A stretch of DNA of 32,000 nt from NCBI RefSeq assembly GCF_000189295.2, contig NC_016803.1, positions 3,450,001 through 3,482,000 on the forward strand. The letters are read 5' to 3'. This DNA is from Pseudodesulfovibrio mercurii. GTDB lineage: Bacteria > Desulfobacterota > Desulfovibrionia > Desulfovibrionales > Desulfovibrionaceae. A program made the position numbers and the translations under genes. The notes under the pieces were generated by a model. It was not told the DNA's origin. It made no database searches and saw nothing but the letters and a program-made list of their open reading frames with translations. Positions 4,272-25,534 of the stretch are shown one piece after another. Each line of letters opens with the position of its first letter. Position 1 is the first letter of the stretch.

Positions 4272-4967
4272 TCACTCCGTTTCGTGGGCGGCGGCCAGGC
4301 CGTCGTGGTCGAGGATGCGGATGTTCCGGCCCGAGGCCTCGATGAGGCGGCGGCGTTTGAACTTCTGGATGACGCGGGACAGGGTCTCCGGGCTGGTGCC
4401 GACGATGCGGGCCATCTCGGTGTGGGAGATGTGCAGGGAGAAGGGGTCGCCGGGGCGGGCGGCGCAGCATCCCTCGGAGTGCTGGAGGAAACAGGCGATG
4501 CGCTTCTGGGTGCCGTGCAGGGCCAGGGACTCCACGAGGTTCATGGTTTCCAGCAGTCTGCCCGCCAGGGTCTGCATGATCTTGAGCAGGAGGATGGGCT
4601 GGCGCCGGGCCAGGTCCTCCATGTCCTCGGACGGGATGCCCGCCACAAGGCTCTTTTCCAGGGCGGCCACGTCCACGGGATAGGGCCGGTCCGTGAAGGC
4701 CGAGCAGAAGCAGAAGGGCTGGCCCGCCTCCACCAGATAGAGGATCTGCTCCTTTCCGTCCGGGGTGCTGCGGAAGATCTTGGCCCGCCCGGACAGGACG
4801 ACGAAGAAGGCCTGGGTCTCGTCGGACCGGCTGATGACCCGTTCGCCGGGTTCGTAGCGGCTGAGCCGGGCGCGGCTGGCCAGGGCCATGACCGCCTCGT
4901 CCTCAAGGCCCGAAAAGAGGGGGGTTTTTCGCAGCAGGCGGAAGGTGTCCATGACAATTTTTCCCAT
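4272..4967 (-). CDS. Crp/Fnr family transcriptional regulator (cNMP-binding-like domain plus C-terminal HTH)
   Basis: 231-aa ORF. The N-terminal beta-roll region resembles the cNMP-binding fold (FSGLEDEAVMALASRARLSRYEPGERV...FFVVLSGRAKIF). The C-terminal HTH is HTEMARIVGTSPETLSRVIQKF, with an FNR-type E--SR recognition-helix motif. The start may be Met1 (4967) or Met6 (4952). Confidence 0.9.
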   Translation of the reverse strand: MGKIVMDTFRLLRKTPLFSGLEDEAVMALASRARLSRYEPGERVISRSDETQAFFVVLSGRAKIFRSTPDGKEQILYLVEAGQPFCFCSAFTDRPYPVDVAALEKSLVAGIPSEDMEDLARRQPILLLKIMQTLAGRLLETMNLVESLALHGTQKRIACFLQHSEGCCAARPGDPFSLHISHTEMARIVGTSPETLSRVIQKFKRRRLIEASGRNIRILDHDGLAAAHETE

Positions 4968-4986: not shown

Positions 4987-5062
4987 TGTGACAATGGAAA
5001 AATTCTCCTATGCTACAGACGTGAATACTCGGTAATGGTCTATAATGAAAGGAGGAATACTG

Positions 5063-5971
5063 ATGACAATTTCCCGCAGAGGATTTTTGGGAGCGTTGGG
5101 GGTCGCGGGGGCGGTCTCGGCGGTGCCCGGAAATGCGCAGGCGTGGGAATCCAAGGCGCCGCCCGATCCGTTCGGCTGCCTGGTGGACCTGTCCCGGTGC
5201 GTGGGGTGCAGGAAGTGCGAACAGGCTTGCAAGGAGGTCAACGACCTGCCCGAGCCCGCCGTGAAGTTCGACGACCTGACCGTGCTCGACGCCAAGCGGA
5301 GGCCGGACCAGAACGCGTTCACGGTGATCAACCGGTACTATCCGGGGCGCATCGACGACCGCGACAAGCTGGCGCCGACCTTCGTCAAGGTGCAGTGCAT
5401 GCACTGCCAGGACCCGGCCTGCGTCTCGGCCTGCATCACCGGGGCCCTGACCAAGAAGGAAAACGGGGCCGTGCACTACGACGTGAACAAGTGCATCGGC
5501 TGCCGCTACTGCATGGCCGCCTGCCCCTTCGAGATCCCGGCCTACGAGTACGACAAGCCCATCCTGCCCAGGGTGCGCAAGTGCACGTTCTGCTTCGAGC
5601 GCATCTCCAAGGAGGGCGGCAAGCCCGGCTGCGCGTCCATCTGCCCGGTGGAGGCCATCACCTTCGGACGGCGGGGCGAGCTGCTCAAGCTGGCCCGCGG
5701 GCGCATCGAGGGCGATCCCGGCAAGTACATCGACCACATCTACGGGGAGCACGAGGTGGGCGGCACCAGTTGGCTGTACATCTCCAACGTGCCCTTCGAG
5801 AAGGTCGGCTTCCAGACCCTGCCGACCCGGCCCATGCCGCAGACCACGGAGACCATCCAGAGCGCGCTGTTCAGCTACCTGTGGTCCCCCCTGGCCCTGT
5901 TCGGGGTCCTCGGGGCGGTCATGGGCGCGACCTCGCGCAAGCACAACAAGGAGGGCGGTGATGACGCATAA
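5063..5971 (+). CDS. Tat-exported 4x[4Fe-4S] ferredoxin-type subunit (NrfC/HybA/HmcB/PsrB family) with a C-terminal membrane anchor
   Basis: ORF 5045..5971. The likely start is the second ATG (5063), after AAAGGAGGAA, giving the twin-arginine signal [13 protein letters not shown]...AQA. Four Cys clusters are present ([40 protein letters not shown]...CASICP). The hydrophobic C-terminus is [20 protein letters not shown]. Confidence 0.9.
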
Positions 5972-7124
5972 GCCCCAACCCGTGGACCGGCCCTTCTGGA
6001 CGCCCGGCGTGCTGGTCATGCTGGCCCTGATGATCGCGGCCGCCCTGACCCTCGTCGTGCGCTACACCTACGGGCTGGCCGCCGTGACCAACCTGAACAA
6101 CCACTACCCGTGGGGCATCTGGATCGGCCTGGACGTGGCCTCGGGCGTGGCCCTGGCCGCGGGCGGCTTCACCACCGCCTTCCTGGCGCACATCCTGGGC
6201 CGCCACTACTACGAGGCCGTGACCCGGCCCGCGCTGCTGACCGCAGCCCTCGGCTACACCTTCGTGGCCCTGGCCGTGTTCTTCGACATCGGCCGGTCCT
6301 GGGCCATCTGGAAGCCGATCGTCTACCAGAACCATACCTCGGCCCTGTTCGAGGTGGCCATGTGCGTGATGACCTACGTGACCGTGCTGTGGATCGAGTT
6401 CATCCCGGTCCTGGCCGAGCGGCTGGGCGGGAAGATCAAGCTCCTGGCCTTCCTGGACCGCATCCTGGACAAGACCATGTGGGTCTTCATCATCCTCGGG
6501 GTGGTGCTGTCCTGCATGCACCAGTCCAGCCTGGGCACCCTGATGGTCATCGCGCCGACCAAGACGTCGCCCCTGTGGGCCACGCCGCTGCAACCGCTGC
6601 TGTTCCTGACCTCGGCCTTCGCCGTGGGCTATCCCATGGTCATCGTGGAGACGACCATCGCCACCTCCTCCCTCAGGCTGGAGTCGGAGATGAACGTGCT
6701 CTCGCCGCTGTCCAGGATCACCATCCTGCTGCTCGGCGTGTACATGGCCCTCAAGGTCGGGGACCTGATCTCGCGCGGGGCGTACACGACCCTGCTGGAC
6801 GGCTCGGCCCAGAGCAACTCCTTCCTGGTGGAGGTGGGGCTCGGGGTGATCCTGCCCTGGCTCATGCTGCTCGTCCCGGCGGTGCGCCGCTCGCGCAGGT
6901 GGCTGTTCATCGCGGCCCTGCTCATCGTCTCGGGCGTGATGCTCAACCGGTTCAACGTGTTCGTGGTTTCCTTCAAGGCCCCGTATGCGAACTACCCGTA
7001 CTACCCGGCCATCGGCGAGATACTCGTCACCGCCGGAGCCGTGGCCACGATCTTCTTCCTCTACCGGCTGATTGTGACCTGGTTCCCGGTGCTTTCCGCC
7101 CAACGACAGGAGGTTTCCCAATGA
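5958..7124 (+). CDS. NrfD/PsrC/HmcC-family integral membrane quinone-interacting subunit
   Basis: 388-aa polytopic membrane ORF with multiple hydrophobic helices and NrfD-family-like sequence ([24 protein letters not shown]). It overlaps the upstream gene by 14 nt and the downstream gene by 4 nt (ATGATGA), so the three genes are translationally coupled. Confidence 0.88.
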
Positions 7125-9286
7125 TGAGGGAGATGAAGAGACTCGGGTGGCTGGCCATCGTGGTCGCGGCCGTGGTCCTGGCGGGGCTGACGCCCTCCCG
7201 GGCCGCCACCGCGCCCGGCGCGGCCGCCGAACCCCCGGCCAAGTCCCGCAAGGACCTGACCCCCATGCCCGAGGGCTGGTCGCCCGCCGACGAGGTCAAG
7301 GCGGAGAAGGTGGCCCGCGAGGCCTACCCGTTCGTGGAGAAGGTCCTCAAGGAGGACCTGGTCCTGCGCCAGCAGCGGCTGCGCAAGCTAGGCATCGGGC
7401 CCAAGGACATCAAGCACAGCTACTTCCTGCTCGACAGTCCGCTGGTGGACACCTACGAGCGCAAGTACGAGCCCGTGCGGTTCATGCATGCCAAGCATGC
7501 GGCCGCCCTGGGCGGCGACTGTGCCTCCTGCCACCACTACCGCCCCGAGGACCCCAAGGCCTCGGAGACCGTGGCCTGTCGTTCCTGCCACCAGGACTCC
7601 TTCTCGGCCGAGCATCCCGAACGCATCGGGCTGAAGGCCGCCTACCACATGCAGTGCATGAACTGTCATGAGAAGATGAAGAAGGGTCCGGTCAGCTGCG
7701 AAGGCTGCCACACCAAGCGCCCGGTGGACCACAAGGAGCTGGTCAAGCTCCCGGAGAACCCCACCCCGCAACAGGTGACCCAGGAATGCCTGCGCTGCCA
7801 CGAGCAGGCGGGCGAGGACATGCTCGACTCGGCCCATTGGCTGTGGCGCGGCCCGTCCCCGTACACGGTGGAACACAGACAGAGCGTCATGTCCGGAAAG
7901 GGGACCACGACGCTCAACAACTTCTGAATATCCCCCATCAGCAACGAGGCTCGTTGCACATCATGCCATGCGGGATACGGTTGGAAGGACTCCACCTTTG
8001 ACTTCAAGAATATGAACAACCTCGACTGCCTGGTCTGTCACGACACCACGGGCAGCTACAAGAAGGCCCCGCCCGCGGCGGGCATGCCCGACCCCAAGGT
8101 GGACCTGCTCTACGTGGCCGGGAACGTCGGCCCCACCAGCCGCAAGACCTGCGGCGCCTGCCACTTCAGCGGCGGCGGGGGCGATGCGGTCAAGCACGCG
8201 GACATGTCCTCGGAACTGTACTGGCCGGACCGCAACTGCGACGTCCACATGGGCGGGTACAACTTCGAGTGCACGGAGTGCCACAAGACGCGCAACCACA
8301 AGATATCGGGCAGGTCCACCTCGGCCCCGGTGGCCGAAGGTTCCCGCGCCTGCGAGGACTGCCATACCTCCAAGCCTCACTACGGCGAGACCCTGCTCGA
8401 TCATCACCTGAACAAGCACTGCGAGACCGTGGCCTGCAACACCTGCCACTCGCCCATCTACTCCAAGTGCACCCCCACCAAGACGTGGTGGGACTGGTCC
8501 ACCACCGGCGACAAGGAGCGCAAGGTGGGCAAGGACAAGTACGGCAAGCCCGACTACAACTGGATGAAGGGCGACTTCCGCTGGGGCGAGTCGGTCAAGC
8601 CCGAGTACGCCTGGTACAACGGGTTCATGCGCCGGCTGCTGCTCGGCGACGTCATCAACCCCGAGGCCAAGGGCTTCAAGTCCGGCGAGCACCTGACCGA
8701 CGAGCAGAAGGCGAACATGGTGAAGACCAACATCACCGAGCCCATCGGTTCCATCGGCGACCCGCACTCGCGGATCACGCCGTTCAAGATCATGTCCGGC
8801 ATCCAGCCTGCCGACGCCAAGTACCGGTACCTGCTCATCCCGCACCTGTATCCGTACAACAAGGATGACAAGACCGCCTACTGGAAGGGCGCCGACTGGC
8901 AGACCGCCTTCAAGGAGGGCATGAAGAAGGCCAACCTGGCCTACAGCGGCGATTACATGTGGGTGGCCACGGACATGTACTGGCGCATCGAGCACGAGGT
9001 TATGCCCAAGGAGCACGCCCTGTCCTGCGTGCAGTGCCACGACAGCCTCAAGGGCGAAAAGACCTGCGACCGCTGCCATCAGGATACGCGCAACATCAAG
9101 TTCCGCGAACTGACGGAAAAGGGCGCGGACTTCGAGCTGCTCAAGATGATGGGCCGCGACGTGGGCGACCTGATCGGCCAGACCGACTACATCGACTTCA
9201 GGAAGCTCGGCTACAAGGGCGACCCGATCCTCTACGGCGGACGGTTCACCCAGCTGCCGCTCGGCCAGGGGCCGGACAAGAAGTAG
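7121..9286 (+). CDS. Periplasmic multihaem cytochrome c with 13 CXXCH motifs: a c3-like tetrahaem module fused to an octahaem tetrathionate reductase (OTR)-family module. An in-frame UGA at 7925-7927 is a probable selenocysteine codon
   Basis: ATG 7121 follows AGGAGG, and the signal peptide is [31 protein letters not shown] pieces 7121..7927 and 8012..9286 are in the same frame. The 84-nt gap translates without stops as ISPISNEARCTSCHAGYGWKDSTFDFKN and contains a haem motif. Motifs before the UGA: CASCH, CRSCH, CMNCH, CEGCH, CLRCH. Motifs after it: CTSCH, CLVCH, CGACH, CTECH, CEDCH, CNTCH, CVQCH, CDRCH. If the UGA is a real stop, this locus is a pseudogene or a split gene. Confidence 0.75.
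7941..7957 (+). other. Candidate bacterial SECIS hairpin downstream of UGA 7925-7927
   Basis: GCAACGA-GGC-TCGTTGC: a perfect 7-bp stem with a GG-containing apical loop. The stem begins 13 nt after the UGA and the loop 20 nt after it. Flanking CAT...ATG could extend the helix. This spacing and loop resemble known bacterial SECIS elements such as E. coli fdhF. Confidence 0.6.
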
Positions 9287-9312
9287 GCGCGAGACTGCGC
9301 AACCGACAACCG

Positions 9313-9350
9313 GGCCCGGCGTCTTCTGACGCCGGGCCTTTCTCTTTGTT
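9313..9350 (+). terminator. Rho-independent terminator of the FeS/NrfD/cytochrome operon
   Basis: GGCCCGGCGTC-TTCT-GACGCCGGGCC (11-bp perfect stem) followed by TTTCTCTTTGTT, 27 nt after the cytochrome stop. Confidence 0.8.
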
Positions 9351-9361
9351 CCGGGAGACGG

Positions 9362-9778
9362 CTACGGGGTCACGTGCAGGTCCAGGACAGCGTCGATGAG
9401 CGGTTTGGCCTTGACCCCGCCGCAGCTCGACTTGGAGACCTCGTTGAGCAGGATGATGACCGTGTACTCGCCGGGGACGGCAAAGGTCACGGTGGTCTCG
9501 GGATAGCCGGGCCGGACCTTGGGCTTGTCGCCCTCGGGCCGGTTCGGGAACTCCAGGTTCACGGCGGTGTAGGCCCCGGCCGGGAACCGGTAGCCGTTGA
9601 GGTCGAAGACGACCTTGACCGGCTGGCCGACCTTGGGCGCGCCGTCCAGGTGGACCCGGCCGCCGGGCACCGAGGTGTGCAGGGCGTCGGCCAGGGCCGG
9701 GCCGGACAGGAGCGCGGTCCAGGCCAGGGCCAGGACGGCGCAGGCCGCGAACAGGGTGGGGAGGGTGCGCTTTTTCAT
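9362..9778 (-). CDS. Small secreted hypothetical protein (138 aa, Sec signal peptide)
   Basis: This is the C-terminal part of ORF 9362..11263. From the ATG at 9778 it reads MKKRTLPTLFAACAVLALAWTALLSGPALA-DALHT..., a clear signal peptide, followed by beta-strand-rich sequence. I recognise no family. The upstream 495 aa of the listed ORF is a shadow of the + strand regulator gene. Confidence 0.6.
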   Translation of the reverse strand: MKKRTLPTLFAACAVLALAWTALLSGPALADALHTSVPGGRVHLDGAPKVGQPVKVVFDLNGYRFPAGAYTAVNLEFPNRPEGDKPKVRPGYPETTVTFAVPGEYTVIILLNEVSKSSCGGVKAKPLIDAVLDLHVTP

Positions 9779-9850
9779 GCCTTGATCATACGCCGGGTCC
9801 GGTATATTGCAAGACATGGGTATCCATTGGGTATACGCGAGGGAGGCGGC

Positions 9851-11185
9851 ATGAAGAACCGGTCGGGCGAGCAGCGGCACTACTGGGACATGCTCCTGGC
9901 CATGGAGCAGGAGGAGGACTATTTCCTGGAGCGCTGGTCCGTCCGCATGGAGCAGGCGGGCTACCTGGAGCACACCACGGCCAAGCGGGCGGACTGCCTC
10001 CTGGCCCTGTCCGACTTTCTGGCGCCCATGCGGGAGCACCGGGACCGGGGGCTGGCCAACCCGGACTTCCCCTGGCTCATCCGCCACGAGGGGGAGTGGG
10101 GCCGCCCGCAGATCGAGTCCGCCCGGCGGCACCGCATGCGCGGCATCACCGCCGACATGTACATCGGCTGCTTCAAGACCTTCATCCACAGCCTGGTGGA
10201 CGTCATTGAGAAGCTGGACGGCTCCTACGAGAGCAAGGTCCAGGCGCGCCGCCACGTCAAGCTCTACGGCGACGCCCTGGAGGTCCTCTTCGTGCGCGAC
10301 TGGACGCGCATCCTGCCGGACCTTGCCGCGCAGAAGCTGGACGAGGCCAACCGGTTGCTGACCCTGGAGAAGTGCCGCTACGAGAACATCCTGGACGCCT
10401 CGTCCGAGCTGATTCTGGTGGTCGGCGGCGACGGCCGCGTGACCAAGGCCAACCGGGCGGTCCAGGCCGTGCTGGAGGGACGGGACGTCATCGGCGCGCC
10501 CATCTGGGACGTTCTGTCCATGGAGGGGCAGTCCATGGAGGACCTGCTCAAGTACTACCCCGAGGGCACGTCCTGCGAGATGAACCCGTTCGACGAGGCC
10601 GTCATCTACCGCATGCAGATCAACTCCATCGGCAGCGTGTCCATGGCCAGCGACGAGTACATGCTCATGCTCAGCAACATCACGGCCCACGCGGCCCAGC
10701 GCGAGACCCTGGAGCGGGTGGTCTCCGAGCGGACCGAGGCCCTGCGCCGCGAAAAGGAGCAGCTCGAGGAGATGAACATCACCCTGCGCAACGTGCTCCA
10801 GTCCATCGACCGCGAGCGGGAGCAGCTCCTGGGCGAGGTCTCGGCCAAGGTCAACAACCTGGTCCTGCCCGCCCTGGAGCGGATCGAGAACGAGGACGAC
10901 GCGGCCATCCGCAAGGGCTACCTGACCGTGGCCAAGGACCAGCTGGCGCGGCTCGCGCCCGGCAGCGGCGGCTCGGACCCGCTGCTCCTCAAGCTGACCC
11001 ACATGGAGACCCGCGTGGCCCAGTTCATCCAGGCCGGGCACCCGTCCAAGGAGATCGCGGAGACCCTGAACATCTCCCTGGAGACCGTCCAGACCCACCG
11101 CAAGAACATCCGGCGCAAGCTCGGCCTGCACGGCAAGAGCGTCAGCCTGTACGCCCACCTCAAGACCTTGGGACTGACCGCCTGA
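9851..11185 (+). CDS. PAS-domain LuxR-family transcriptional regulator (no receiver domain)
   Basis: ATG 9851 follows GGGAGG, within ORF 9374..11185. There is a central PAS-like region (ENILDASSELILVVGGDGRVTKANRAVQAVLEG), a coiled-coil region, and a C-terminal LuxR HTH (LTHMETRVAQFIQAGHPSKEIAETLNISLETVQTHRKNIRRKLGL). Confidence 0.85.
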   Translation: MKNRSGEQRHYWDMLLAMEQEEDYFLERWSVRMEQAGYLEHTTAKRADCLLALSDFLAPMREHRDRGLANPDFPWLIRHEGEWGRPQIESARRHRMRGITADMYIGCFKTFIHSLVDVIEKLDGSYESKVQARRHVKLYGDALEVLFVRDWTRILPDLAAQKLDEANRLLTLEKCRYENILDASSELILVVGGDGRVTKANRAVQAVLEGRDVIGAPIWDVLSMEGQSMEDLLKYYPEGTSCEMNPFDEAVIYRMQINSIGSVSMASDEYMLMLSNITAHAAQRETLERVVSERTEALRREKEQLEEMNITLRNVLQSIDREREQLLGEVSAKVNNLVLPALERIENEDDAAIRKGYLTVAKDQLARLAPGSGGSDPLLLKLTHMETRVAQFIQAGHPSKEIAETLNISLETVQTHRKNIRRKLGLHGKSVSLYAHLKTLGLTA

Positions 11186-11308: not shown

Positions 11309-11875
11309 ATGGCGGACCAGACAGACATTCGTGACCAGGCGCGGGCCCTTCGGGACTTCTTCGCGTCGCGCGACGCAACGGACCTGAGGCGCACGGCGCT
11401 CGCCGTTTCCGGACTCTTTCACCGAGAGCTTGCGCCGGACACCGACTGGACCGGCGCGGAGTACGACTTCAACCGGCTCTTTGTCGGGCCCATGGCCGTC
11501 CCGGCCCCGCCCTACGCCTCGGCCTACCAGGTGGAGCCCGCGCTCATGGGCGGGCCGACCCTGGACGTGCGCGAGGCCTACCGCGCCCTGGGACTCCGAG
11601 TCCCGGACCAGGGGCGCACCCCGGACGATCACCTGGCCTTCGAGCTGGACCTGGCCGCGGCATTGCCGGGTCCTGGCGAGGGAGCGGCGGACGACCCGGT
11701 CCCGGCCGAGGTCCGGGAGTGGCTCATGGGCGAACACCTGCCCGGCTGGGTCCCGGCCTTCATCGGGGCCGTGGAGGCGCAGCCGGACGTGTCCGCGCCG
11801 GTGCGCATGGCCGTGGCGGCCCTGGGCGGCTGGCTCGAATCGATCCGGCCCCCGGCAGGGGCCGGCCAGGCATAG
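11309..11875 (+). CDS. TorD/DmsD-family redox enzyme maturation chaperone
   Basis: 188-aa ORF preceded by GGAGGTGAAAC. It carries family-typical motifs (EYDFNRLFVGP, PPYASAY, DHLAFELDL) and sits immediately upstream of a Tat-dependent molybdoenzyme gene. Confidence 0.8.
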   Translation: MADQTDIRDQARALRDFFASRDATDLRRTALAVSGLFHRELAPDTDWTGAEYDFNRLFVGPMAVPAPPYASAYQVEPALMGGPTLDVREAYRALGLRVPDQGRTPDDHLAFELDLAAALPGPGEGAADDPVPAEVREWLMGEHLPGWVPAFIGAVEAQPDVSAPVRMAVAALGGWLESIRPPAGAGQA

Positions 11876-11908
11876 GCAACCTTTCAACGTGATCTGGAGG
11901 AGGATCAT

Positions 11909-14152
11909 ATGACGAAACAACGTATGTTCGGCAGACGGCGATTCCTGCAAGGGGCGGCCGCGGCGGGCGCGGCGGCCATGCTGCCGTGTTCCCTGCTGGT
12001 GCCCGATCAGGCCCGCGCGGCCGCTTTCGAGGAGGGCGACTACCAGGTCTTCCGCAACGCCTGCCCGCGCAACTGCTACGACACGTGCAGCATCAAGACC
12101 TACGTCAGGGACGGGGTCGTCCAGTTCATCGAGGGCGCGCCCGAGTCCACCTTCACCAAGGGCGGCCTGTGCGTGAAGGGCTACAGCTACACGCGGCGGC
12201 CCTACAGCCCGGACCGGGTCAAGTACCCCATGGTCCAGGACGGCCGCCGGTCCGGCAAGTGGCGGCGGGTGTCCTGGGACGAGGCCCTGGACATGATCGC
12301 CAGGAAGATGCTCCAGCTGAAAGAGGAGGACGGCAGCCTGCTCGGCCTGGGCATGACCAAGTATTCCGGCAATTTCGGCATCACCAACTACGGCGTGGAA
12401 GGGCTCATGTCCTCGCTCGGCTACACCACCCGCTTCGTGGGCACCCCGTGCTGGCCCGCGGGCATCGACGCCCAGAACTACGACATGGGCAACATGTGGT
12501 GCAACGACCCCGAGGACATGGTCAAGGCGCGCTATATCATCGTCTGGGGCGCGAACCCGGCCTGGTGTTCGGTCCACTCCATGAAATACATCATGGAGGC
12601 CAAGCGGCGCGGGGCCAAGATCGTGGTCGTGGACCCCGTCTTCACCCAGACCGCGGCCAAGGGCGACGTGTTCTGGCAGCCCCGGACCGCCTCGGACGGG
12701 GCGCTGGCCCTGGGCATGGCCCGGCACATCCTGGACAAGGGGCTGGTGGACGAGGACTTCGTCCGCAATCACGGCCTCGGCTTCGACGAGTTCGCCGACT
12801 ACCTGCGCAACAACGTGACCGTTGAGTGGGCCGCCGAACAGTCCGGCATCCCGGCCCGCGAGATTATGGAGGTGGCCGAGGAGTTCGCCTCGGCCGACCC
12901 GGCGACCATCTGGATCGGCTACGGCATGCAGCGCCACACCAACGGCGGGGCGTCCGTGCGCTCCATCGACGCCCTGGTGGCCATGACCGGCAACATCGGC
13001 AAGGAGGGCGGCGGCGCGCGCTACGGCCATCTCCAGACCTGGGGCTTCAACTACCACGCCCTGATCCAGAAGCAGCCCGAGGGGTCCAAGGGATTCCTGG
13101 GAGGCGCGGCCAAGGGCGAGTTCGACTTCACCAGCGGCTCCGGGGCGAGCTACACCGACCGCACCGTGAACATCAACAAGACCGCCCAGGCCATCCTGGA
13201 CACCGCGGACCCGGCCATCCGCATGCTCTGGGTCTCCTGCAAGAATCCCTTCGGCCAGGATTTCGACCGGCCCAAGCTGGAAAAGGCCTTCGACAAGCTG
13301 GAGATGGTCGTCACCGTGGACCAGTTCTTCAACGAGACCGTGGCCAACTCCGACATCGTCCTGCCGGTGACCACCCTGTTCGAGGAATGGACGGTCAACG
13401 TCTCCTACTGGCACTACTGGCTGTCCATCAACGAGCAGGCCATCAAGCCCATGTTCGAGACCAAGTCCAACATCGAGATCGCGGCGGCCCTGTCCGGGAA
13501 GATGAACGAGCTGGCCCCCGGCTCCTGCACCTTCCCCCGGGACATCGACACCAAGGAGTGGATGGAGAAGGAGTTCAACCAGTCCATCTACGACATGTTC
13601 GGCATCGACGACTGGACCGCCCTGCGCAACGGGCCGGTCAAGGCCAGGCTCAAGTCTTCGGCGGCGTGGAGCGACAAGACCTTCGCCACCCCGTCGGGCA
13701 AGTACGAGTTCAAGTCCGAACTGTGCGCCGGAAATGGACACAAGGCCCTGCCCGAGTTCAAGTCCGGGCGCGAGAACTACGACAAGTTCCGCCTGCTGAC
13801 CCCGCACACCAAGTTCGGCCTGCACTCCCAGTTCGTCAACCTGGACTGGATGCACGAGTACGACAAGGAACCCTTCATCTACATGCACCCCAAGGCGGCC
13901 GCCGGGAAGGGCATCGCGGACCTGGACACGGTCCGGGTGTTCAACAAGGTGGGCGAGCAGAAGGCCAGGGTCAAGCTGACCGACAACGTGGCCGAGGACT
14001 GTCTGCTCATGTACGAGGCATGGTTCGGCCGGGGCAATGACTTCAACGTCCAGAACCTGGTGGACGACGAGTCCGCCGACATGGGCGCGTTCAAGGCCGG
14101 GGCTCCGGGCGTGGCCATCCACGACCAGTTCGCCGACATCGAGCGGGCGTAA
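11909..14152 (+). CDS. Tat-exported molybdopterin (bis-MGD) oxidoreductase catalytic subunit, DMSO reductase superfamily; substrate unknown
   Basis: 747 aa. Twin-arginine signal MTKQRMFGRRRFLQGAAAAGAAA...ARA. N-terminal FeS-0 motif CPRNCYDTCSIK...C. RBS GGAGGAGG. A long molybdopterin-binding body follows (IIVWGANPAW, KIVVVDPVFTQTA). Confidence 0.88.
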   Translation: MTKQRMFGRRRFLQGAAAAGAAAMLPCSLLVPDQARAAAFEEGDYQVFRNACPRNCYDTCSIKTYVRDGVVQFIEGAPESTFTKGGLCVKGYSYTRRPYSPDRVKYPMVQDGRRSGKWRRVSWDEALDMIARKMLQLKEEDGSLLGLGMTKYSGNFGITNYGVEGLMSSLGYTTRFVGTPCWPAGIDAQNYDMGNMWCNDPEDMVKARYIIVWGANPAWCSVHSMKYIMEAKRRGAKIVVVDPVFTQTAAKGDVFWQPRTASDGALALGMARHILDKGLVDEDFVRNHGLGFDEFADYLRNNVTVEWAAEQSGIPAREIMEVAEEFASADPATIWIGYGMQRHTNGGASVRSIDALVAMTGNIGKEGGGARYGHLQTWGFNYHALIQKQPEGSKGFLGGAAKGEFDFTSGSGASYTDRTVNINKTAQAILDTADPAIRMLWVSCKNPFGQDFDRPKLEKAFDKLEMVVTVDQFFNETVANSDIVLPVTTLFEEWTVNVSYWHYWLSINEQAIKPMFETKSNIEIAAALSGKMNELAPGSCTFPRDIDTKEWMEKEFNQSIYDMFGIDDWTALRNGPVKARLKSSAAWSDKTFATPSGKYEFKSELCAGNGHKALPEFKSGRENYDKFRLLTPHTKFGLHSQFVNLDWMHEYDKEPFIYMHPKAAAGKGIADLDTVRVFNKVGEQKARVKLTDNVAEDCLLMYEAWFGRGNDFNVQNLVDDESADMGAFKAGAPGVAIHDQFADIERA

Positions 14153-14160
14153 GGAGAACG

Positions 14161-14721
14161 ATGATGAAAAAGCAATACGCATTCCTGGTCGACACCGAGC
14201 GGTGCATCGGCTGCTTCACCTGCGCCATGGCCTGCCGCAACTACTACCATCAGGTGGAGGGCGTGGTCTGGCGTCAGGTCCACCCCCTGAGCGAGGAGAT
14301 CTACCCCCACCGCGAGCGGGCCTTCCTGTCGCTCTCCTGTAACCACTGCGAGAACCCGGCCTGCCTGAACGTCTGCCCGGTGGAGGCGTACACCAAGCGG
14401 GAGGACGGCGTGGTCGTCCACCATCAGGAGAAGTGCATCGGCTGCGGCAACTGCATCCGCTCCTGTCCCTACGGCGCGCCCAAGTACAACCCGGTGGAGA
14501 AGCGCGCCGAGAAGTGCAGCCTGTGCCACGAGCGCCTGGACGCCGGGCTCAAGCCCGCCTGCGTGCAGGCCTGCCCCGTGGAGGCCCTGCAACTCATCGA
14601 CCTGGCCGACTTCGAGGAGACCAACGAGGTCCAGTACCCGGCGGGCTACCCCCGGATGGAGAGTCTCAACCCGTCCACCCGGTTCGTCCTGCCCCAAACC
14701 CCCAAGATGGTCAGGAGGTAG
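14161..14721 (+). CDS. DmsB-type 4x[4Fe-4S] electron-transfer subunit
   Basis: 186 aa with four ferredoxin-type Cys clusters (CIGCFTCAMAC, CNHCENPACLNVCP, CIGCGNCIRSCP, CSLC...CVQACP). No signal peptide is present, which is consistent with hitch-hiking on the A subunit. Confidence 0.88.
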   Translation: MMKKQYAFLVDTERCIGCFTCAMACRNYYHQVEGVVWRQVHPLSEEIYPHRERAFLSLSCNHCENPACLNVCPVEAYTKREDGVVVHHQEKCIGCGNCIRSCPYGAPKYNPVEKRAEKCSLCHERLDAGLKPACVQACPVEALQLIDLADFEETNEVQYPAGYPRMESLNPSTRFVLPQTPKMVRR

Positions 14722-14723
14722 TC

Positions 14724-15524
14724 ATGCAATCCATGGAAATTCCGCTCGTCCTGTTCACCGTGTTCTCCCAGGCGGCCATCGGCCTGACCCTGATGCGCGT
14801 GGTCCGCACCACGGCCGACGGGGACGGGGCCGAGTCCGGCGACGCCCGCAGCGAATGGCGGCTCATCGCCGGGCTCATGATCCTGGGCATGTTCGGCTCC
14901 CTGTTCCACCTGGGCCATCCCCTGTCCGCGCCCACGGCCCTCAAGCACCTGGGCACGGCCTGGCTCAGCCGCGAGGTCTTGTTCGCCGGGCTGTTCACCG
15001 GCGTGACCGTGCTGGCCGTGCTCCTGGCGGGCAAGGCGGGCAGGCCCGTGCTGGCCTGGCTCGGCACGCTGCTCGGCCTGGGCGTCATCGTGTCAGCGGG
15101 CATGACCTACGCGCCACCGGCCCTGCCCGCCCTGAACAACGCCCTGCCGTTCAGCTTCTTCCTGACCTCGGCCGTGATCCTCGGCTCGGGCTTCGGCAGC
15201 TGGTTCGCGGGCAGCGAGCGCGCCCCGCTCATGACCCGCATCTTCACCACGGCCCTGGTGGTCGGCCTGGTCCTGAACCTGGTCGCCCCGTGCGTCTGGC
15301 TGTCGGGCGGCGCGGTCATGCGCATGACCGCCCAGGCCTGGCTGGGCTCGGGCTTCTATTGGGCGCACGTGGCCGTGCTGATCGCCTGCCTGGGCGTGGT
15401 CTGGAAGTTCCGGACCATCCCGGCCGGGCTGCCGCTCCTGGCCCTGCTCGGCGAACTGGCCGGACGCGCCGGGTTCTTCGCCGACACCATCCACGCCGCC
15501 GCCAACATGGGCGGCCTGTACTAG
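14724..15524 (+). CDS. DmsC-type membrane anchor subunit
   Basis: ATG 14724 follows AGGAGG, within ORF 14433..15524. The sequence MQSMEIPLVLFTVFSQAAIGL... is a polytopic hydrophobic protein of about 266 aa, matching the DmsC N-terminal pattern. Confidence 0.8.
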   Translation: MQSMEIPLVLFTVFSQAAIGLTLMRVVRTTADGDGAESGDARSEWRLIAGLMILGMFGSLFHLGHPLSAPTALKHLGTAWLSREVLFAGLFTGVTVLAVLLAGKAGRPVLAWLGTLLGLGVIVSAGMTYAPPALPALNNALPFSFFLTSAVILGSGFGSWFAGSERAPLMTRIFTTALVVGLVLNLVAPCVWLSGGAVMRMTAQAWLGSGFYWAHVAVLIACLGVVWKFRTIPAGLPLLALLGELAGRAGFFADTIHAAANMGGLY

Positions 15525-15537
15525 CAACCTCCACACC

Positions 15538-15561
15538 GGGCGGGACTTGCCGGTCCCGCCC
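15538..15561 (+). terminator. GC hairpin after the dms-like operon
   Basis: GGGCGGGAC-TTGCCG-GTCCCGCCC (9-bp perfect stem) 14 nt after the stop. No U-tract follows. Confidence 0.4.
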
Positions 15562-15600
15562 GCATCCTCTCGGCCGGAGCGGGTCCTCCTTCCCCCCGGC

Positions 15601-15637
15601 GACAAAACGCCCCGCAGCGAAGATTCGCTGCGGGGCG
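15601..15637 (-). terminator. Rho-independent terminator of the sigma-54 activator gene (possibly bidirectional)
   Basis: CGCCCCGCAGCGAA-GA-TTCGCTGCGGGGCG (14-bp perfect stem). On the minus strand TTTTGTC follows it. It lies 26 nt past the stop at 15663. Confidence 0.7.
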
Positions 15638-15662
15638 CCGTTGTTCGGAATCGGGAGAGGGG

Positions 15663-17732
15663 TCAGCCCTCGATGTGGTAGCGCTCCATCTTGGCGTACA
15701 GGGTGTTGCGCCCGATGCCCAGCGCCTTGGCCGTCTTGCTGATGTTCCCGTCGTGGAAGTCCAGGGCCTCGCGGATGGCGTTGGCCTCGCGCTGCTTGAG
15801 CAGGAAGCCCTTGCCCTTGGCGTGCCCGTTGCCGGAGACGGCCTTGCCGCTGGTCCGTTCCAGGAGGTAGTGGGGCAGGTGCTCGGGCAGGAGCAGGTCC
15901 CCGGTCAGGTTGTTGGCCGCGTACTCCAGGCAGTTGATCAGCTCGCGGACGTTGCCGGGCCATTCGTGGCCGGCGAGCAGCTCCCTGGTCTCGGCGGCGA
16001 TGGCCGGGCAGGGGATGCCGAAGGAGTCGCACAGCCGCCTCAGGTGGTACTCGGCCAGCAGGGTCACGTCGTTGCCGCGCTCCCGCAGGGGCGGGATGGC
16101 GATGGTGACCACGTTGAGCCGGTAGTAGAGGTCCTCGCGGAACCGCCCCTGGTCCACCAGCTCGCGCAGGTTCTTGTTGGTGGCGGCCAGGATCTTCACG
16201 TCCACGGGCAGGGGGCTGGTGCCGCCCACCGGGACCACGGCCCGCTCCTCCAGGGCCCGGAGCAGATTGACCTGCTGGGACATGGGCATTTCGGAGATTT
16301 CGTCCAGGAAGAGCACGCCCTTGTCCGCCTTCTGGAACTTGCCCACCCGGCCGCGCTTGACCGCGCCGGTGAAGGCGCCCTCGCGGTAGCCGAACAGCTC
16401 GCTCTGGACCAGCTCCTCGGAGAACGCGCCGCAGTTGACGGCCACGAAGGGCTGTTTGGCCCTGGGACCGGCCTGGTGGATGCCCCGTGCGAACAGCTCC
16501 TTGCCGGTGCCGGACTCGCCGGTCAGCAGGATCGTGGACGGGGTCCGGGCTGCGTTGGCCGCCTGGCGGATGACCTGACGCATGGCCGAGCTGCCGTGGA
16601 GCACGTGCTCGAAGCCCTTGACCTCCTCGGGCTCCGCAGGCTTGCGGGGCGAGGCGGCCGGACCCGTGGTGAACTGCCTGGAGCGCTGGGTCTCGCTGAC
16701 CGTGACGATGGTGTCCAGCCACGCGCCGCTGGCGCTGAAGGTCGGCATGACCCGGATGTACAGGCCGGGGTTGACCAGGCACTTGACGATGACCGGCTCG
16801 CACAGGGAGGCGTTCTTGGCCTGGGCCAGGTACGGACCCATGTCGAAGAGTTCCTCGGCCTTGCGGCCGCGCAGGGCGCCGCCGGGACGGCACAGGAGCA
16901 GCTCGGCGGTGTTGTTGGCGCTGGTGATCCTGCCGGACTTGTTCAGGAACAGCACGCCGGTCATGACCGAGTTGAACATGGAGGAGAACAGGGAGGCCAT
17001 CTGGCCTTCGAGTTCGGAACAATAGAGGCGGCTCAGGTTCTGTTCCAGGGCGCGGGCCGCGTGCAGGACCAGGTCCATGGCGCCCGAGTGGTCGGACGAG
17101 GTCGGACCGGAGACGTCGAAGCAACCCCAGACGTTGCCGCGCGGGTCCAGGATCGGAGCGGCGGTGCAGTTCCAGCTGTGGTGGGACTCGCAGAAGTGCT
17201 CCGAGGCGAAAACCTGCATGGGGCGACCCGTGGCCAGGGCGGTGCCGATGGCGTTGGTGCCCACGCAGGACTCGGACCAGTTGGCGCCGGGGCCGAAGTT
17301 CAGCTTGTCCGCCTCGCGCAGGACGTCCATGTCGCCGCAGGTGCGGGCCACGCGGGCGTCGGCGTTGACGATGGTCATGAGCAGCCCCTTGCCCTTGATG
17401 ACCTCGTAGGCCGTGGATTCGACCTCGCCGCAGATCTTTTCCAGGGTGGTGGTGAACTGCTCCAGCTGGTTCATGGGCAGAAAGTCCCAGCAGCTGCGCG
17501 GGGCCGGATCAACGGCCATGTCCTTGCAGCGTTGCCAGGAGTCCAGCAGGGCCCGGTCCACGTTTTTGTTTTTCAGGCGTTTGCCTTCGACGAACTGTTT
17601 CCAGTTCGAGTAACTCAGTTGGGCGTTCCGCTGTTTATGGGCGCAGGATATGGGCAGCGTCACCGCCGCATCCGGCGCGTGCGGGTCCCGTCGTATTTCG
17701 AATCCGTTTCCATCTCTGAGGAGCAGGTGCAT
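15663..17732 (-). CDS. acoR: Sigma-54-dependent transcriptional activator, AcoR type (GAF-like sensor, PAS, AAA+ and Fis HTH domains)
   Basis: 689 aa. The N-terminus has AcoR-like GAF sequence (SWQRC...GTNAIGTALATGRPMQV...EHFCESHHSWNCTAAPI). The AAA+ core carries GESGTGKELFARGIH and the GAFTGA motif. The C-terminal HTH is ISKTAKALGIGRNTLYAKM. The gene is divergent from an operon that carries a -24/-12 promoter. Confidence 0.9.
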   Translation of the reverse strand: MHLLLRDGNGFEIRRDPHAPDAAVTLPISCAHKQRNAQLSYSNWKQFVEGKRLKNKNVDRALLDSWQRCKDMAVDPAPRSCWDFLPMNQLEQFTTTLEKICGEVESTAYEVIKGKGLLMTIVNADARVARTCGDMDVLREADKLNFGPGANWSESCVGTNAIGTALATGRPMQVFASEHFCESHHSWNCTAAPILDPRGNVWGCFDVSGPTSSDHSGAMDLVLHAARALEQNLSRLYCSELEGQMASLFSSMFNSVMTGVLFLNKSGRITSANNTAELLLCRPGGALRGRKAEELFDMGPYLAQAKNASLCEPVIVKCLVNPGLYIRVMPTFSASGAWLDTIVTVSETQRSRQFTTGPAASPRKPAEPEEVKGFEHVLHGSSAMRQVIRQAANAARTPSTILLTGESGTGKELFARGIHQAGPRAKQPFVAVNCGAFSEELVQSELFGYREGAFTGAVKRGRVGKFQKADKGVLFLDEISEMPMSQQVNLLRALEERAVVPVGGTSPLPVDVKILAATNKNLRELVDQGRFREDLYYRLNVVTIAIPPLRERGNDVTLLAEYHLRRLCDSFGIPCPAIAAETRELLAGHEWPGNVRELINCLEYAANNLTGDLLLPEHLPHYLLERTSGKAVSGNGHAKGKGFLLKQREANAIREALDFHDGNISKTAKALGIGRNTLYAKMERYHIEG

Positions 17733-17931: not shown

Positions 17932-17990
17932 AGCCGGTACATACAGTAATATATACTGTTATCCGGCTTGAATCATTGACCTATGCCGCT

Positions 17991-18006
17991 TGGCACCAGC
18001 GTTGCA
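17991..18006 (+). promoter_or_regulatory. Sigma-54 (-24/-12) promoter TGGCAC-CAGCG-TTGCA
   Basis: An exact match to the TGGCAC-N5-TTGC consensus, 45 nt upstream of the E2 ATG and facing the operon. A sigma-54 activator gene is adjacent. Confidence 0.85.
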
Positions 18007-18050
18007 ATCCCTCCGGCAACGTATGCAAAAAAAACCAGGAGGACTTGGTT

Positions 18051-19388
18051 ATGGCTCATGATGTGATTATGCCCAAGTGGGGCCTGACCATGAAAGAAGG
18101 TAAGGTCGCACGCTGGCTCAAGGGCGAAGGGGACCCGGTCGAAGCCGGGGAGCCTCTGTTCGAAGTCGAGACCGACAAGATCACCAACTCGGTCGAGGCG
18201 CCCGCCAGCGGCGTCCTGGCCAAAATCATCGTCCCCGAGGGGGACGTGGCCCCGATCCAGGCCGTTTTGGCCATCATCGCCGCCCCGGGCGAAGCCGTCG
18301 ATGCGTCGGCTCCCGCCGGTGCGGCCAAACCCGCGGCCGAAGCGGCCCCCGCCGCCGCTGCCGACAAGCCCGCCGCCGCTGCCCCGGCCGGGGACGGCAA
18401 GTTCGTTCCGGCCATGCCCGCAGCGCGCAAGCTGGCCAAGGAACTGGGCGTGGACCTGTCCACGGTGACCGGTACCGGCAAGGACGGCAAGATCACCGCC
18501 AAGGACGTCCAGGACGCCGCTGATTCCGCCTACGCCGGGATCAACGCCAGCCCCAAGACCATTGACTTCGCCCGCAAGCAGGGCGTGGACCTCAGCCAGG
18601 TGACCGGCACCGGCGAGGACGGCAAGATCACCAAGGCGGACATCCTGCGGGCCATGAACCCGTCGGCCGCCCAGCCCGCCGCCGGGCCTGCGCCCGCCAA
18701 GGACACCATCGTGCCCATGGAAGGCGTGCGCAAGCTCGTCGCGGACAACATGCAGGCCAGCCTGCAGAACGCGGCCCAGCTGACCGTGTTCGTCGAGCTC
18801 GACGTCACCGAGATGGTCGGCCTGCGCGCCAAGCTGCTCGAGCGCAACAAGCGCAACGCGGACTACCGTGTGTCGTACAACGACATCATCGCCTACGCCG
18901 TGTGCCGCGCACTGAAGCGTCACCCGGTCATGAACTCCACCCTCCAGGCGGACGGCATCCATCTGCATCCGCACGTCAATCTCGGCATCGCCGTGTCCAT
19001 CGACAAGGGGCTCATCGTGCCCAACGTCAAGGAAGCGGACACCTTCGGCCTGGAAGAACTCAAGGACAAGGTTCGCGACGCGGCCGGTCGGGCTCGCAAG
19101 GGCGGCCTGAACATGGACGAGATCACGGGCGGCACCTTCACCATCAGCAACGTGAGCATGCTCGGCGTGGACGGTTTCACGCCCATCCTCAATCCGCCGG
19201 AGACCGGCATCCTGGGCGTCGGCCGCATCGTCGAGAAGCCCGCGGTGCACAACGGCGAGATCGTCGCGCGCCAGATGATGACCCTGTCCCTGACCTTCAA
19301 CCATATGACCACGGATGGGGCTCCGGCCATGGCCTTCCTGCGCGAGCTGGGAGACATGCTGGAAATGCCCGGCCTGATGATCGTCTAG
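18051..19388 (+). CDS. acoC: Dihydrolipoamide acyltransferase (E2) of an acetoin/2-oxo acid dehydrogenase complex
   Basis: ATG 18051 follows AGGAGG. The lipoyl domain carries EVETDKITNSVEAP. There are Ala/Pro linkers and two peripheral-subunit-binding-like repeats (PAARKLAKELGVDLSTVTGTGKDGKITAKDV and DFARKQGVDLSQVTGTGEDGKITKADI). The catalytic domain ends ...SLTFNHMTTDGAPAMAFL. Confidence 0.9.
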   Translation: MAHDVIMPKWGLTMKEGKVARWLKGEGDPVEAGEPLFEVETDKITNSVEAPASGVLAKIIVPEGDVAPIQAVLAIIAAPGEAVDASAPAGAAKPAAEAAPAAAADKPAAAAPAGDGKFVPAMPAARKLAKELGVDLSTVTGTGKDGKITAKDVQDAADSAYAGINASPKTIDFARKQGVDLSQVTGTGEDGKITKADILRAMNPSAAQPAAGPAPAKDTIVPMEGVRKLVADNMQASLQNAAQLTVFVELDVTEMVGLRAKLLERNKRNADYRVSYNDIIAYAVCRALKRHPVMNSTLQADGIHLHPHVNLGIAVSIDKGLIVPNVKEADTFGLEELKDKVRDAAGRARKGGLNMDEITGGTFTISNVSMLGVDGFTPILNPPETGILGVGRIVEKPAVHNGEIVARQMMTLSLTFNHMTTDGAPAMAFLRELGDMLEMPGLMIV

Positions 19389-19398
19389 GGGGCACCCC

Positions 19399-19824
19399 AT
19401 GGCGCTGAAACGGTTTGCTATCGAACTCGGCTATGCCGCCGACCTGCACGGCGAGGACATGACCAAGGCCGCCGTCAGGGCGGTGCGCGACGCCGTGTCC
19501 CGCATATGCCTGTGCGGCATCGTGGAGATCTGCGGCCGTGATCAATTCCAGGGTGTGCACGTCCACGCGGACGTGGCCGTTCCGAATCCCGACGGCGTGG
19601 ACCGCGACGCGGTGCTCGCCTGCATCCCCATCGGCGAAAAGACCCTGACCGTGGTCCCCGGCGGCATGAGCGTGCCGGGCATCGAGGTCCCCTGTTTCGC
19701 CCCGGGCGTGAGCAACATCGTCGCGGCCTGTGCGGCCCTGACCGTCTCCATCGAGACGGACCTGGCCGCGGGAGCGGATGGATCGAAAAACCAGGCCTGC
19801 GGATGCGCCGCCAAGGCCAAATAA
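19399..19824 (+). CDS. Lin0512-family protein (uncharacterised conserved family)
   Basis: 141 aa. The N-terminus FAIELGYAADLHGEDMTKAAVRAVRDAV fits the family signature GxGxDxHG as I remember it (GYAADLHG, one Gly replaced by Ala). It is tightly packed between the E2 and E1 alpha genes, with gaps of 10 and 18 nt. Confidence 0.6.
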   Translation: MALKRFAIELGYAADLHGEDMTKAAVRAVRDAVSRICLCGIVEICGRDQFQGVHVHADVAVPNPDGVDRDAVLACIPIGEKTLTVVPGGMSVPGIEVPCFAPGVSNIVAACAALTVSIETDLAAGADGSKNQACGCAAKAK

Positions 19825-19842
19825 CCTACAGGAGAGAAAGCA

Positions 19843-20802: not shown

Positions 20803-20850
20803 GCGGCGATTCACCTTTCTCGAATCCTTAAAAATTCAATGGAGAGTACA

Positions 20851-25357: not shown

Positions 25358-25534
25358 GCTGTCTCCTTTGCCCGGGCGATGCAAAAGACGGGCCTCGGGG
25401 AGGCGGGGGATCTGGCCGGGCCGTCCGCCCTATACCCGGCTCCGGACCGCCGGGCAAGGGGCGCGCATGCCGCTGGCCTCGGACGGGCGAAGGGGGTATG
25501 ACCTTTGCACCGAGAGCGCGAAAGGAGGGAACAC

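Follow-up and report, generated by a model that had tools for sequence, protein, structure and literature searches.

A probable selenocysteine codon at the position of a conserved cysteine in a c3-fused, OTR-type multihaem cytochrome

We analyzed a 32,000-nt (32-kb) stretch of the Pseudodesulfovibrio mercurii genome (contig NC_016803.1, positions 3,450,001 to 3,482,000; hereafter the window, with coordinates counted from its first nucleotide), in which a gene for a multihaem cytochrome of the octahaem tetrathionate reductase (OTR) type is interrupted by an in-frame UGA codon. Comparison with related sequences makes it very probable that positions 7121–9286 of the plus strand constitute one gene and that the UGA at 7925–7927 encodes selenocysteine (Sec), at residue 269 of the product. 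This reading is carried by the alignment of the UGA with a cysteine conserved in the OTR family, by the alternation of TGA with cysteine codons among related loci, by a short hairpin that accompanies the UGA, and by the conservation of the reading frame downstream of it.

The reading frame and the conserved cysteine

Translation of 7121–9286 yields a single 722-codon frame whose sole internal stop is the TGA at 7925–7927. The open reading frame (ORF) track lists two pieces, 6110..7927 and 8012..9286, and translation confirmed the statement of the initial annotation that both lie in one frame and are parted by this TGA alone. The 84 nt between the pieces (7928–8011), which the same annotation had regarded as coding sequence, are open in frame and translate as ISPISNEARCTSCHAGYGWKDSTFDFKN, including one CXXCH haem-attachment motif. 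Judged from the sequence, the upstream piece begins with a Sec-type export signal, whereas the downstream piece has neither a signal peptide nor a ribosome-binding site, as had been proposed; inspection revealed no Shine-Dalgarno sequence before ATG 8012. The start codon of the cytochrome, ATG 7121, overlaps the TGA stop of the NrfD-like gene upstream of it (ATGA). Because TGA serves as the ordinary stop both of this NrfD-like gene and of a LuxR-type gene nearby, recoding would be a local event, with the genetic code remaining standard.

The read-through product carries 13 CXXCH motifs, namely, four in an N-terminal domain similar to tetrahaem cytochrome c3, eight in the OTR-type module, and one extra motif near the C terminus. 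The c3-like domain resembles the C-terminal domain of HmcA, as indicated by matches to positions 475–540 of the NCBIfam HmcA profile, to TmcA, and to PDB entries for HmcA and c3. The OTR family profile, TIGR04315 (cut-off 375 bits), was matched with 479.6 bits by a single stretch (residues 203–642) that runs across the TGA and covers profile positions 2–429 of 440. The structure of the Shewanella oneidensis OTR (PDB 1SP3) was recovered with E = 6e-114, aligning ~440 residues (query residues 204–641), with CLRCH, CTSCH, CLVCH, CGACH, CTECH, CEDCH, CNTCH and CVQCH of the window protein in register with the eight motifs of OTR.

The initial annotation had named a conserved OTR cysteine in an NNFC context as the likely partner of the UGA, and suggested aligning the conceptual 721-residue product with the family. 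The alignment bore this out: NNFC(64)VAISSNEPRCTSCH of 1SP3 is aligned with NNF-TGA-ISPISNEARCTSCH, which puts the TGA on Cys64 by chain numbering. As had been noted, haem motif 2 of the OTR module follows the UGA at a distance of 10 codons. The lysine of the GK pair, Lys260, aligns with Lys56 of 1SP3 and does not vary in any of the 32 aligned homologues or in any Sec-type or Cys-type locus, with Sec269 lying 9 residues past this lysine and 10 residues before the haem-2 CXXCH. In the account of the OTR structure from 2004 (Mowat et al.), haem 2, the catalytic one, reportedly has Lys56 as an unusual axial ligand, and Lys260 is presumably the equivalent of that ligand. The catalytic haem of OTR is five-coordinate and belongs to the N-terminal module (PMC9250108).

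More than 3000 homologues came up in a protein search, and the column of the TGA was counted in the 117 full-length proteins listed. It holds Cys in 108 of these, Leu in seven, Ala in one and Thr in one, so this cysteine is a real family feature. The proteins with Leu, Ala or Thr (P0103, P0108, P0110, P0111, P0114–P0117 and P0120) form a c3-OTR subgroup that may have a different catalytic chemistry, or none, at that site. Three listed "proteins" of 424–425 aa start exactly at MNN[IM]DC, and their contigs repeat the arrangement found here, that is, 266 aa, an 84-nt gap and 424 aa, with TGA at the identical codon. The prediction that gene callers would mis-annotate such genes has thus come true, with public calls splitting several orthologues into 266-aa and 424-aa products.

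Scanning one genome per species, we recovered 25 loci, 11 of which have TGA at this codon and 12 of which have TGC or TGT. The TGA loci are spread over Desulfovibrionaceae, Desulfobacteraceae, Desulfohalobiaceae and metagenome-assembled genomes labelled Deltaproteobacteria and Pseudomonadota, and the same codon is TGA in four metagenomic contigs of the related-locus set. Comparison of orthologous codons, one of the checks that the initial annotation had put forward, therefore shows TGA alternating with TGC or TGT at precisely this position. In every complete related TGA locus, 434–453 in-frame codons after the TGA and all 13 CXXCH motifs are kept, which indicates protein-level selection on the sequence beyond the TGA. 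In a neighbour-joining tree, the Cys forms L005/L007/L008/L010, L012 and L022 are nested among the Sec forms of a broad clade, a pattern that implies three or more reversions from Sec to Cys. The closest genomes by NrfD identity (93–94%), those of Pseudodesulfovibrio karagichevae and "Desulfovibrio caledoniensis", both have the Cys form. Sec is found in classic 8-haem OTRs as well as in c3-fused OTRs with 13 haems, and the fused c3-OTR architecture is common to many Cys-type homologues.

The hairpin downstream of the UGA

A perfect 7-bp hairpin, GCAACGA-GGC-UCGUUGC, had been noticed 13 nt past the UGA with its loop starting at 20 nt, and we confirmed it at 7941–7957, within an invariant 20-nt core that occupies 7940–7959. 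The minimal hairpin has a predicted free energy of -9.0 kcal/mol (z = -3.6), and none of 200 shuffled sequences folded as well. Folding of the 71-nt region 7925–7995, as originally suggested, was not significant (z = -0.38); only close relatives share its extended lower stem (AUAUCC/GGGAUA), which distant Sec forms do not preserve, leaving the 7-bp hairpin as the only conserved part of the larger fold.

For bacterial selenocysteine insertion sequence (SECIS) elements, the rules used by bSECISearch call for an apical loop that lies ~16–37 nt from the UGA and has a G at its first positions, a stem of 4 bp or more and a free energy of at most -7.5 kcal/mol. The window hairpin, with its 7-bp stem, GGC loop at 20 nt and -9.0 kcal/mol, fits this geometry. 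The SECIS of E. coli fdhF, which is bound by SelB, is likewise a hairpin within the coding sequence (CDS) right after the UGA, with a spacer of ~11–13 nt and a loop that begins with G-G. The window hairpin differs from it in sequence, has no evident bulged U and has a nominal loop of 3 nt. It also differs in being invariant across families, probably because its arms encode S-N-E and A-R-C.

Perfect hairpins of at least 7 bp lie 8–20 nt downstream of 5 of the 372 plus-strand TGAs in the window (~1%). The hairpin alone is thus a roughly 1-in-75 coincidence, and its significance must come from comparison with other sequences. All 16 TGA loci carry it at +14 to +30, whereas none of 12 Cys loci has it at that position (Fisher p = 5.6e-7, phylogeny uncorrected), and it is identical in all 16 except for one loop base in L013 (GUC). 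Codons +5 to +10 (AGC AAC GAG GCT CGT TGC) are frozen in the Sec forms and only there, with the Arg codon being CGT in 14 of 14 Sec forms and in none of 12 Cys forms. The G+C content at third codon positions (GC3), 92.5% over the whole gene, drops to 57% in codons +1 to +14 and, in overlapping windows just downstream, to 50%, the minimum of the gene. The lowest GC3 thus falls in the ~20 codons after the TGA, indicating that an RNA-level constraint overrides codon bias there.

The constraint appears, from these alignments, to act on the protein as well. Codons +7 and +8 (7946–7951) always encode Glu-Ala in Sec forms (Glu-Ser in L013), whereas Cys forms mostly have Trp-Pro or Glu-Pro, so the RNA element appears to dictate part of the peptide and the segment would be under a dual-coding constraint. 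The 3' arm of the hairpin is closed by the first Cys codon of CTSCH. The hairpin would then be frozen because its arms encode S-N-E and A-R-C, the final C being the first Cys of the haem-2 motif, and any compensatory substitution on either side of the stem would replace a conserved amino acid.

Scanning metagenomes with the 20-nt core, AGCAACGAGGCTCGTTGCAC, extended the comparison to at least 120 contigs (L030–L149). Among the matches listed, TGA lies exactly 5 codons 5' of the core in an OTR-type gene in 118 of 119 assessable cases, in the context NNF-U-xxxxSNEAR-CTSCH, and the host proteins are 39–89% identical to the window protein. Of 62 copies bounded on both sides, 36 are of the 13-haem c3-fused type (5+8 motifs) and 22 of the classic 8-haem type (1+7 motifs), so that the full 5+8 or 1+7 pattern is found in 58; the other four are frameshifted or at a contig edge. 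The possibility of a second Sec in shortened metagenomic copies was considered and rejected, these copies being frameshifts or contig ends. In L085, L125 and L145, Sec-type OTR genes are frameshifted downstream of the TGA, which may reflect assembly errors or real pseudogenes. L081 (Ga0233414_10115719) is the only hairpin-bearing copy among the matches listed that has TGT in place of TGA, and by its sequence it looks like a very recent Sec-to-Cys conversion that preceded SECIS decay.

Alternative explanations and a possible mechanism

By default, an in-frame stop would be taken as the mark of a pseudogene, which in this case would be the product of a strain-specific nonsense mutation that truncates the cytochrome at codon 268 and leaves the rest to decay, and the few frameshifted metagenomic copies (L085, L125, L145) could be cited in favor of such an interpretation. 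We consider it extremely unlikely, since TGA occupies the identical codon in 16 related loci and 118 metagenomic contigs, with the 434–453 downstream codons and all eight downstream CXXCH motifs intact in every related TGA locus, and is kept down to 39% protein identity, which implies long-term purifying selection on the translated product. An error of sequencing or assembly has a negligible probability: the same TGA recurs in many independent assemblies from different projects and methods, and the local codons ATA, GCT, CGT, ACA, TCA and CAT, in a gene with a GC3 of 92.5%, make up the Sec-type signature and not that of the Cys forms. Hardly conceivable, too, is a pair of genes encoding a 268-aa pentahaem cytochrome (7121–7927) and a 424-aa heptahaem protein (8012–9286), even though ATG 8012 exists and public calls give orthologue products of 266 aa and 424/425 aa. 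Against such a pair, the 84-nt "spacer" is in frame and encodes the haem-2 CXXCH along with family-invariant residues, and the downstream piece, which would need export to acquire its haems, is preceded by no ribosome-binding site and has no signal peptide. Moreover, Cys-type orthologues are single polypeptides of ~720 aa, and one stretch of the hidden Markov model match crosses the junction.

A different kind of alternative accepts that the UGA is translated, by selenium-free read-through that would involve near-cognate suppression (inserting Trp or Cys) or a misacylated tRNA, with the hairpin acting as a generic stimulator or pause. It draws on the lack of sel genes in the window, the lack of covariation in the hairpin, and the fact that selenium insertion is predicted from sequence. 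We nevertheless judge it very unlikely. The residue aligned with the UGA is Cys, the classic Cys/Sec exchange, and the hairpin, in its spacing, size and G-first loop, conforms to what is expected of a bacterial SECIS. Selenoproteins abound in the host clades, and NCBI curators annotate family members as Sec proteins. Read-through without selenium would also not need a 20-nt sequence that is invariant across families, and it explains neither the Cys alignment nor the strictness with which the hairpin tracks the UGA.

Several points weigh against assigning Sec to this codon or a catalytic role to this residue. The 32-kb window contains no selA, selB, selC or selD and no tRNA, so that the competence of the host for Sec insertion is deduced from taxonomy: the host clade is placed in Desulfovibrionaceae near Pseudodesulfovibrio, a group rich in selenoproteins, and Thermodesulfobacteriota rank in the literature among the most selenoprotein-rich bacteria. 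ARAGORN found no tRNA in the window and, in the flanks of 36 Sec-type loci, a single tRNA-Leu with no linked selC. All seven stem pairs are invariant in 14 sequences, leaving no compensatory covariation to count; because the arms never vary, support for the stem comes from the frozen synonymous sites and from co-occurrence with TGA. With 3 nt, the GGC loop is on the small side for binding SelB; it may open to AGGCU. Rfam gave no match at the gathering threshold over the whole window, with the presence of a general bacterial SECIS family in Rfam unchecked. Furthermore, the 9 of 117 homologues with Leu, Ala or Thr at the Sec column indicate that the Cys/Sec residue is not indispensable to the fold. 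In the OTR structure paper of 2004, Cys64 reportedly lies in the distal pocket of haem 2, and it is on that account that Cys64 and Sec269 are putative active-site residues. Finally, the physiological substrate of OTR is uncertain, with the reduction of tetrathionate, nitrite and hydroxylamine all having been ascribed to it in the literature.

If Sec is inserted as we propose, translation would start at ATG 7121, directed by GGAGG and coupled to the NrfD-like gene via ATGA, and the hairpin at 7941–7957 would recruit SelB-GTP-Sec-tRNA(Sec) at the UGA, so that Sec enters at codon 269. Translation would then run on to TAG 9284, and the 721-residue precursor would be exported through the Sec pathway and loaded with 13 haems. 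Electrons from the quinol pool would pass through the NrfD/HmcC-like and HmcB/NrfC-like subunits to the haem chain and on to the catalytic, Lys-ligated haem; alternatively, they might enter from periplasmic donors via the c3 domain. At the active site, the selenolate of Sec269 would attack a chalcogen-chalcogen bond, for example, in tetrathionate or polysulfide, and the haem would reductively resolve the resulting Se-S adduct. Closest to this scheme is the working model of the MccSep reaction, where polysulfide is attacked by Sec beside a His/Cys-ligated haem (PMC13510729).

The exchange of Cys and Sec at a conserved residue points to a redox-active nucleophile and favors sulfur or selenium substrates over nitrite for OTR-type enzymes. 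For the catalytic mechanism, with Sec269 as the nucleophile and reduction at the haem, we see the chances as evenly balanced. The more comprehensive proposal that combines all these elements is more tentative, falling slightly on the doubtful side. Under that proposal, Sec269 would be the nucleophile in the distal pocket of the Lys-ligated haem in a second class of haem selenoenzyme, mechanistically distinct from MccSep. In sulfate reducers and their relatives, this enzyme would be the terminal reductase of an undescribed quinol-linked, HmcBC-like complex that cleaves S-S or Se-containing substrates (such as tetrathionate, polysulfide or selenite), and the frozen SECIS would force the Sec-type-specific "SNEAR" peptide.

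Operon, related systems and implications

The cytochrome gene is the last of three genes in an operon (Table 1), and in nearly every locus, whether of the Sec or the Cys type, both partner genes precede that of the cytochrome. The product of the first gene scores 352 bits with NCBIfam HmcB (cut-off 420) and 262.6 bits with HybA (cut-off 263); that of the second scores 335 bits with a HybB-like model and 262.8 bits with HmcC, both under the cut-off, and is presumed to be the quinol-interacting subunit. On the plus strand, there is no terminator-like site between the TGA and ATG 8012, and the operon has no internal terminator. The divergent Crp/Fnr-family gene is, from its context, a candidate regulator of the operon. 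Among the listed homologues, P0032 (1043 aa, annotated as "Ni/Fe-hydrogenase cytochrome b subunit, partial") combines in one product a c3-OTR cytochrome and an NrfD-like domain (PF03916), which may be a mis-call across the overlapping gene boundary and shows how prone this operon is to faulty annotation.

Table 1. Coordinates of features of the cytochrome gene, its operon and its surroundings in the window
Feature	Position	Strand	Remarks
OTR-type multihaem cytochrome, CDS	7121..9286	+	721 residues; 13 CXXCH; stop TAG 9284-9286
Shine-Dalgarno GGAGG	7108..7112	+	8 nt 5' of ATG 7121; read directly from the sequence
Predicted Sec-type signal peptide	7121..7204	+	basic N-terminus, hydrophobic core, A-x-A-like cleavage site; judged by eye
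N-terminal tetrahaem cytochrome c3-like domain, 4 CXXCH	7454..7720	+	Pfam Cytochrom_CIII, residues 114-197
OTR-type octahaem module, 8 CXXCH	7727..9046	+	TIGR04315, residues 203-642; 1SP3 residues 4-416
Lys260 codon AAG	7898..7900	+	aligns with OTR Lys56
In-frame UGA, probably read as selenocysteine 269	7925..7927	+	aligns with OTR Cys64
Putative SECIS hairpin, GCAACGA-GGC-UCGUUGC	7941..7957	+	7 bp, 3-nt loop; overlaps codons S-N-E-A-R-C
CTSCH, haem-2 motif of the OTR module	7955..7969	+	sixth of the 13 CXXCH; begins 10 codons past Sec
CDRCH, extra C-terminal motif, 13th haem site	9065..9079	+	past the end of the Shewanella OTR match (query residue 641)
Intrinsic terminator	9312..9349	+	strong; 12-bp stem, 10 G-C pairs, T tract (end also given as 9339); closes the operon after the TAG stop
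4Fe-4S protein, HmcB/HybA/NrfC type, first operon gene	5045..5971	+	Tat-type signal; Pfam Fer4_11 and related
Membrane subunit, NrfD/HmcC/HybB-like, second operon gene	5958..7124	+	Pfam NrfD, E = 1.4e-22
Crp/Fnr-family regulator, divergent	4272..4967	-	Pfam cNMP_binding and HTH_Crp_2; NCBIfam Crp/Fnr-type matches below cut-off
Sigma-54 activator, GAF and PAS domains	15663-17732	-	upstream of the dehydrogenase cluster
2-oxoacid dehydrogenase E2	17976-19388	+	
2-oxoacid dehydrogenase E1 alpha	19843-20802	+	
2-oxoacid dehydrogenase E1 beta	20839-21822	+	

Beyond the cytochrome, a plus-strand gene at 9374–11185 encodes a 603-aa protein in which only a C-terminal LuxR/GerE helix-turn-helix is recognized; it lies between the cytochrome operon and a molybdoenzyme operon and may regulate either. 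The molybdoenzyme operon (11309–14721, plus strand) encodes a TorD-like chaperone, a Tat-exported molybdopterin oxidoreductase and a 4Fe-4S subunit. The best models for the oxidoreductase are those of DMSO/selenate reductases and of the thiosulfate reductase PhsA, all far under the equivalog cut-offs, and its location beside the OTR operon could reflect a shared sulfur or selenium theme. The ORF that follows, at 14855–15742, has no family match. Farther downstream, a plus-strand cluster for a 2-oxoacid dehydrogenase of the acetoin or pyruvate type spans 17976–21822. The only other pair of long same-frame ORFs in the window joined by a single TGA, at 25047 (ORFs 24690–25049 and 25050–25538, with high GC3), was considered as a second selenoprotein and rejected, having no Pfam match; it is probably either a pair of neighbouring genes (TGAATG) or an artefact produced by a frame antisense to a minus-strand gene.

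The initial annotation placed a selenocysteine at this site outside the usual bacterial selenoprotein families, a view that newer work has overtaken. Sec forms of TIGR04315 are listed in a 2026 review as a "GenBank annotated" selenoprotein family, with WP_331457571.1 as the example; the entry has no Sec motif ("-"), no SECIS and no literature reference (PMC13188914). That category rests on the same profile family as the window gene, with one Sec per protein, and the window gene almost certainly belongs to it. As the category is already in GenBank and in the review table, our findings confirm and detail an annotation and do not define a new kind of system. Our literature search found no description of the Sec position, SECIS, distribution or function of Sec-type OTR. 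What is new here is the mapping of Sec to OTR Cys64, the invariant dual-coding SECIS core, the occurrence in two architectures, the NrfCD-like operon, and the repeated Sec-to-Cys reversions.

The Shewanella OTR shares with the window protein its eight CXXCH motifs in register, the conserved Lys56, and C64 aligned with the UGA, but it has Cys, not Sec, and is a stand-alone soluble octahaem protein. The window protein departs from that architecture in its fused c3 domain, its 13th motif, and its NrfC-like and NrfD-like partners. The transmembrane redox complexes of the Hmc, Nhc and Tmc types (HmcABC), known from sulfate reducers, offer a likeness for the operon as a whole, with the FeS protein corresponding to HmcB, the membrane subunit to HmcC/HybB, and the c3 domain to the C-terminal tetrahaem domain of HmcA. 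Membership in the Hmc equivalog families was rejected on the scores (HmcB 352 against 420, HmcC 262.8 against 550 and HmcA 62.8 against 400 bits). The operon also differs from these complexes in that the cytochrome comes last and carries the catalytic OTR module, a feature suggestive of a terminal reductase as opposed to a mere conduit for electrons.

The closest parallel in the use of selenium is MccSep/ExtKL, likewise a periplasmic multihaem cytochrome c with one UGA-encoded Sec beside the catalytic haem and a SECIS-like hairpin downstream, mis-called as two genes, with Cys forms nested in Sec clades and host phyla that overlap. The catalytic haem of OTR, which we take to be Lys-ligated, contrasts with the His/Cys ligation in MccSep. 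MccSep further differs in having five haems and a C-terminal Ig-like domain and in forming a tetramer, with a His/Cys-ligated catalytic haem (PMC13510729). This selenoenzyme of Geobacter sulfurreducens (GSU2937-2936, NF040886), predicted in 2007, proved in 2026 to be a pentahaem, Sec-dependent polysulfide reductase, in which Sec is essential for S-S reduction (PMC13510729). The activity and selenium content of MccSep are thus established experimentally, whereas the OTR-type Sec protein is known here from its sequence. Membership of the window protein in MccSep/ExtKL was rejected: NF040886 is absent from the NCBIfam matches at E <= 1e-3, and the protein has 13 haem motifs and an OTR-type fold.

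For annotation, these results mean that automatic callers turn the window gene, like many of its orthologues, into two bogus genes, and the 20-mer AGCAACGAGGCTCGTTGCAC provides a near-perfect DNA tag for Sec-type OTR genes that can be used to repair the split calls. For the OTR family, whose role has been uncertain since 2004, the Cys/Sec exchange favors S-S or chalcogen chemistry and names a precise residue; if the combined proposal is true, chalcogen chemistry, and not nitrite reduction, would be the ancestral role of the whole family. Following MccSep (2026), the protein would represent the second case, from an unrelated family, of selenium use by a multihaem cytochrome. Sec-type OTR is widespread in sulfate-reducing and sediment bacteria and thus bears on the links between sulfur and selenium cycling.

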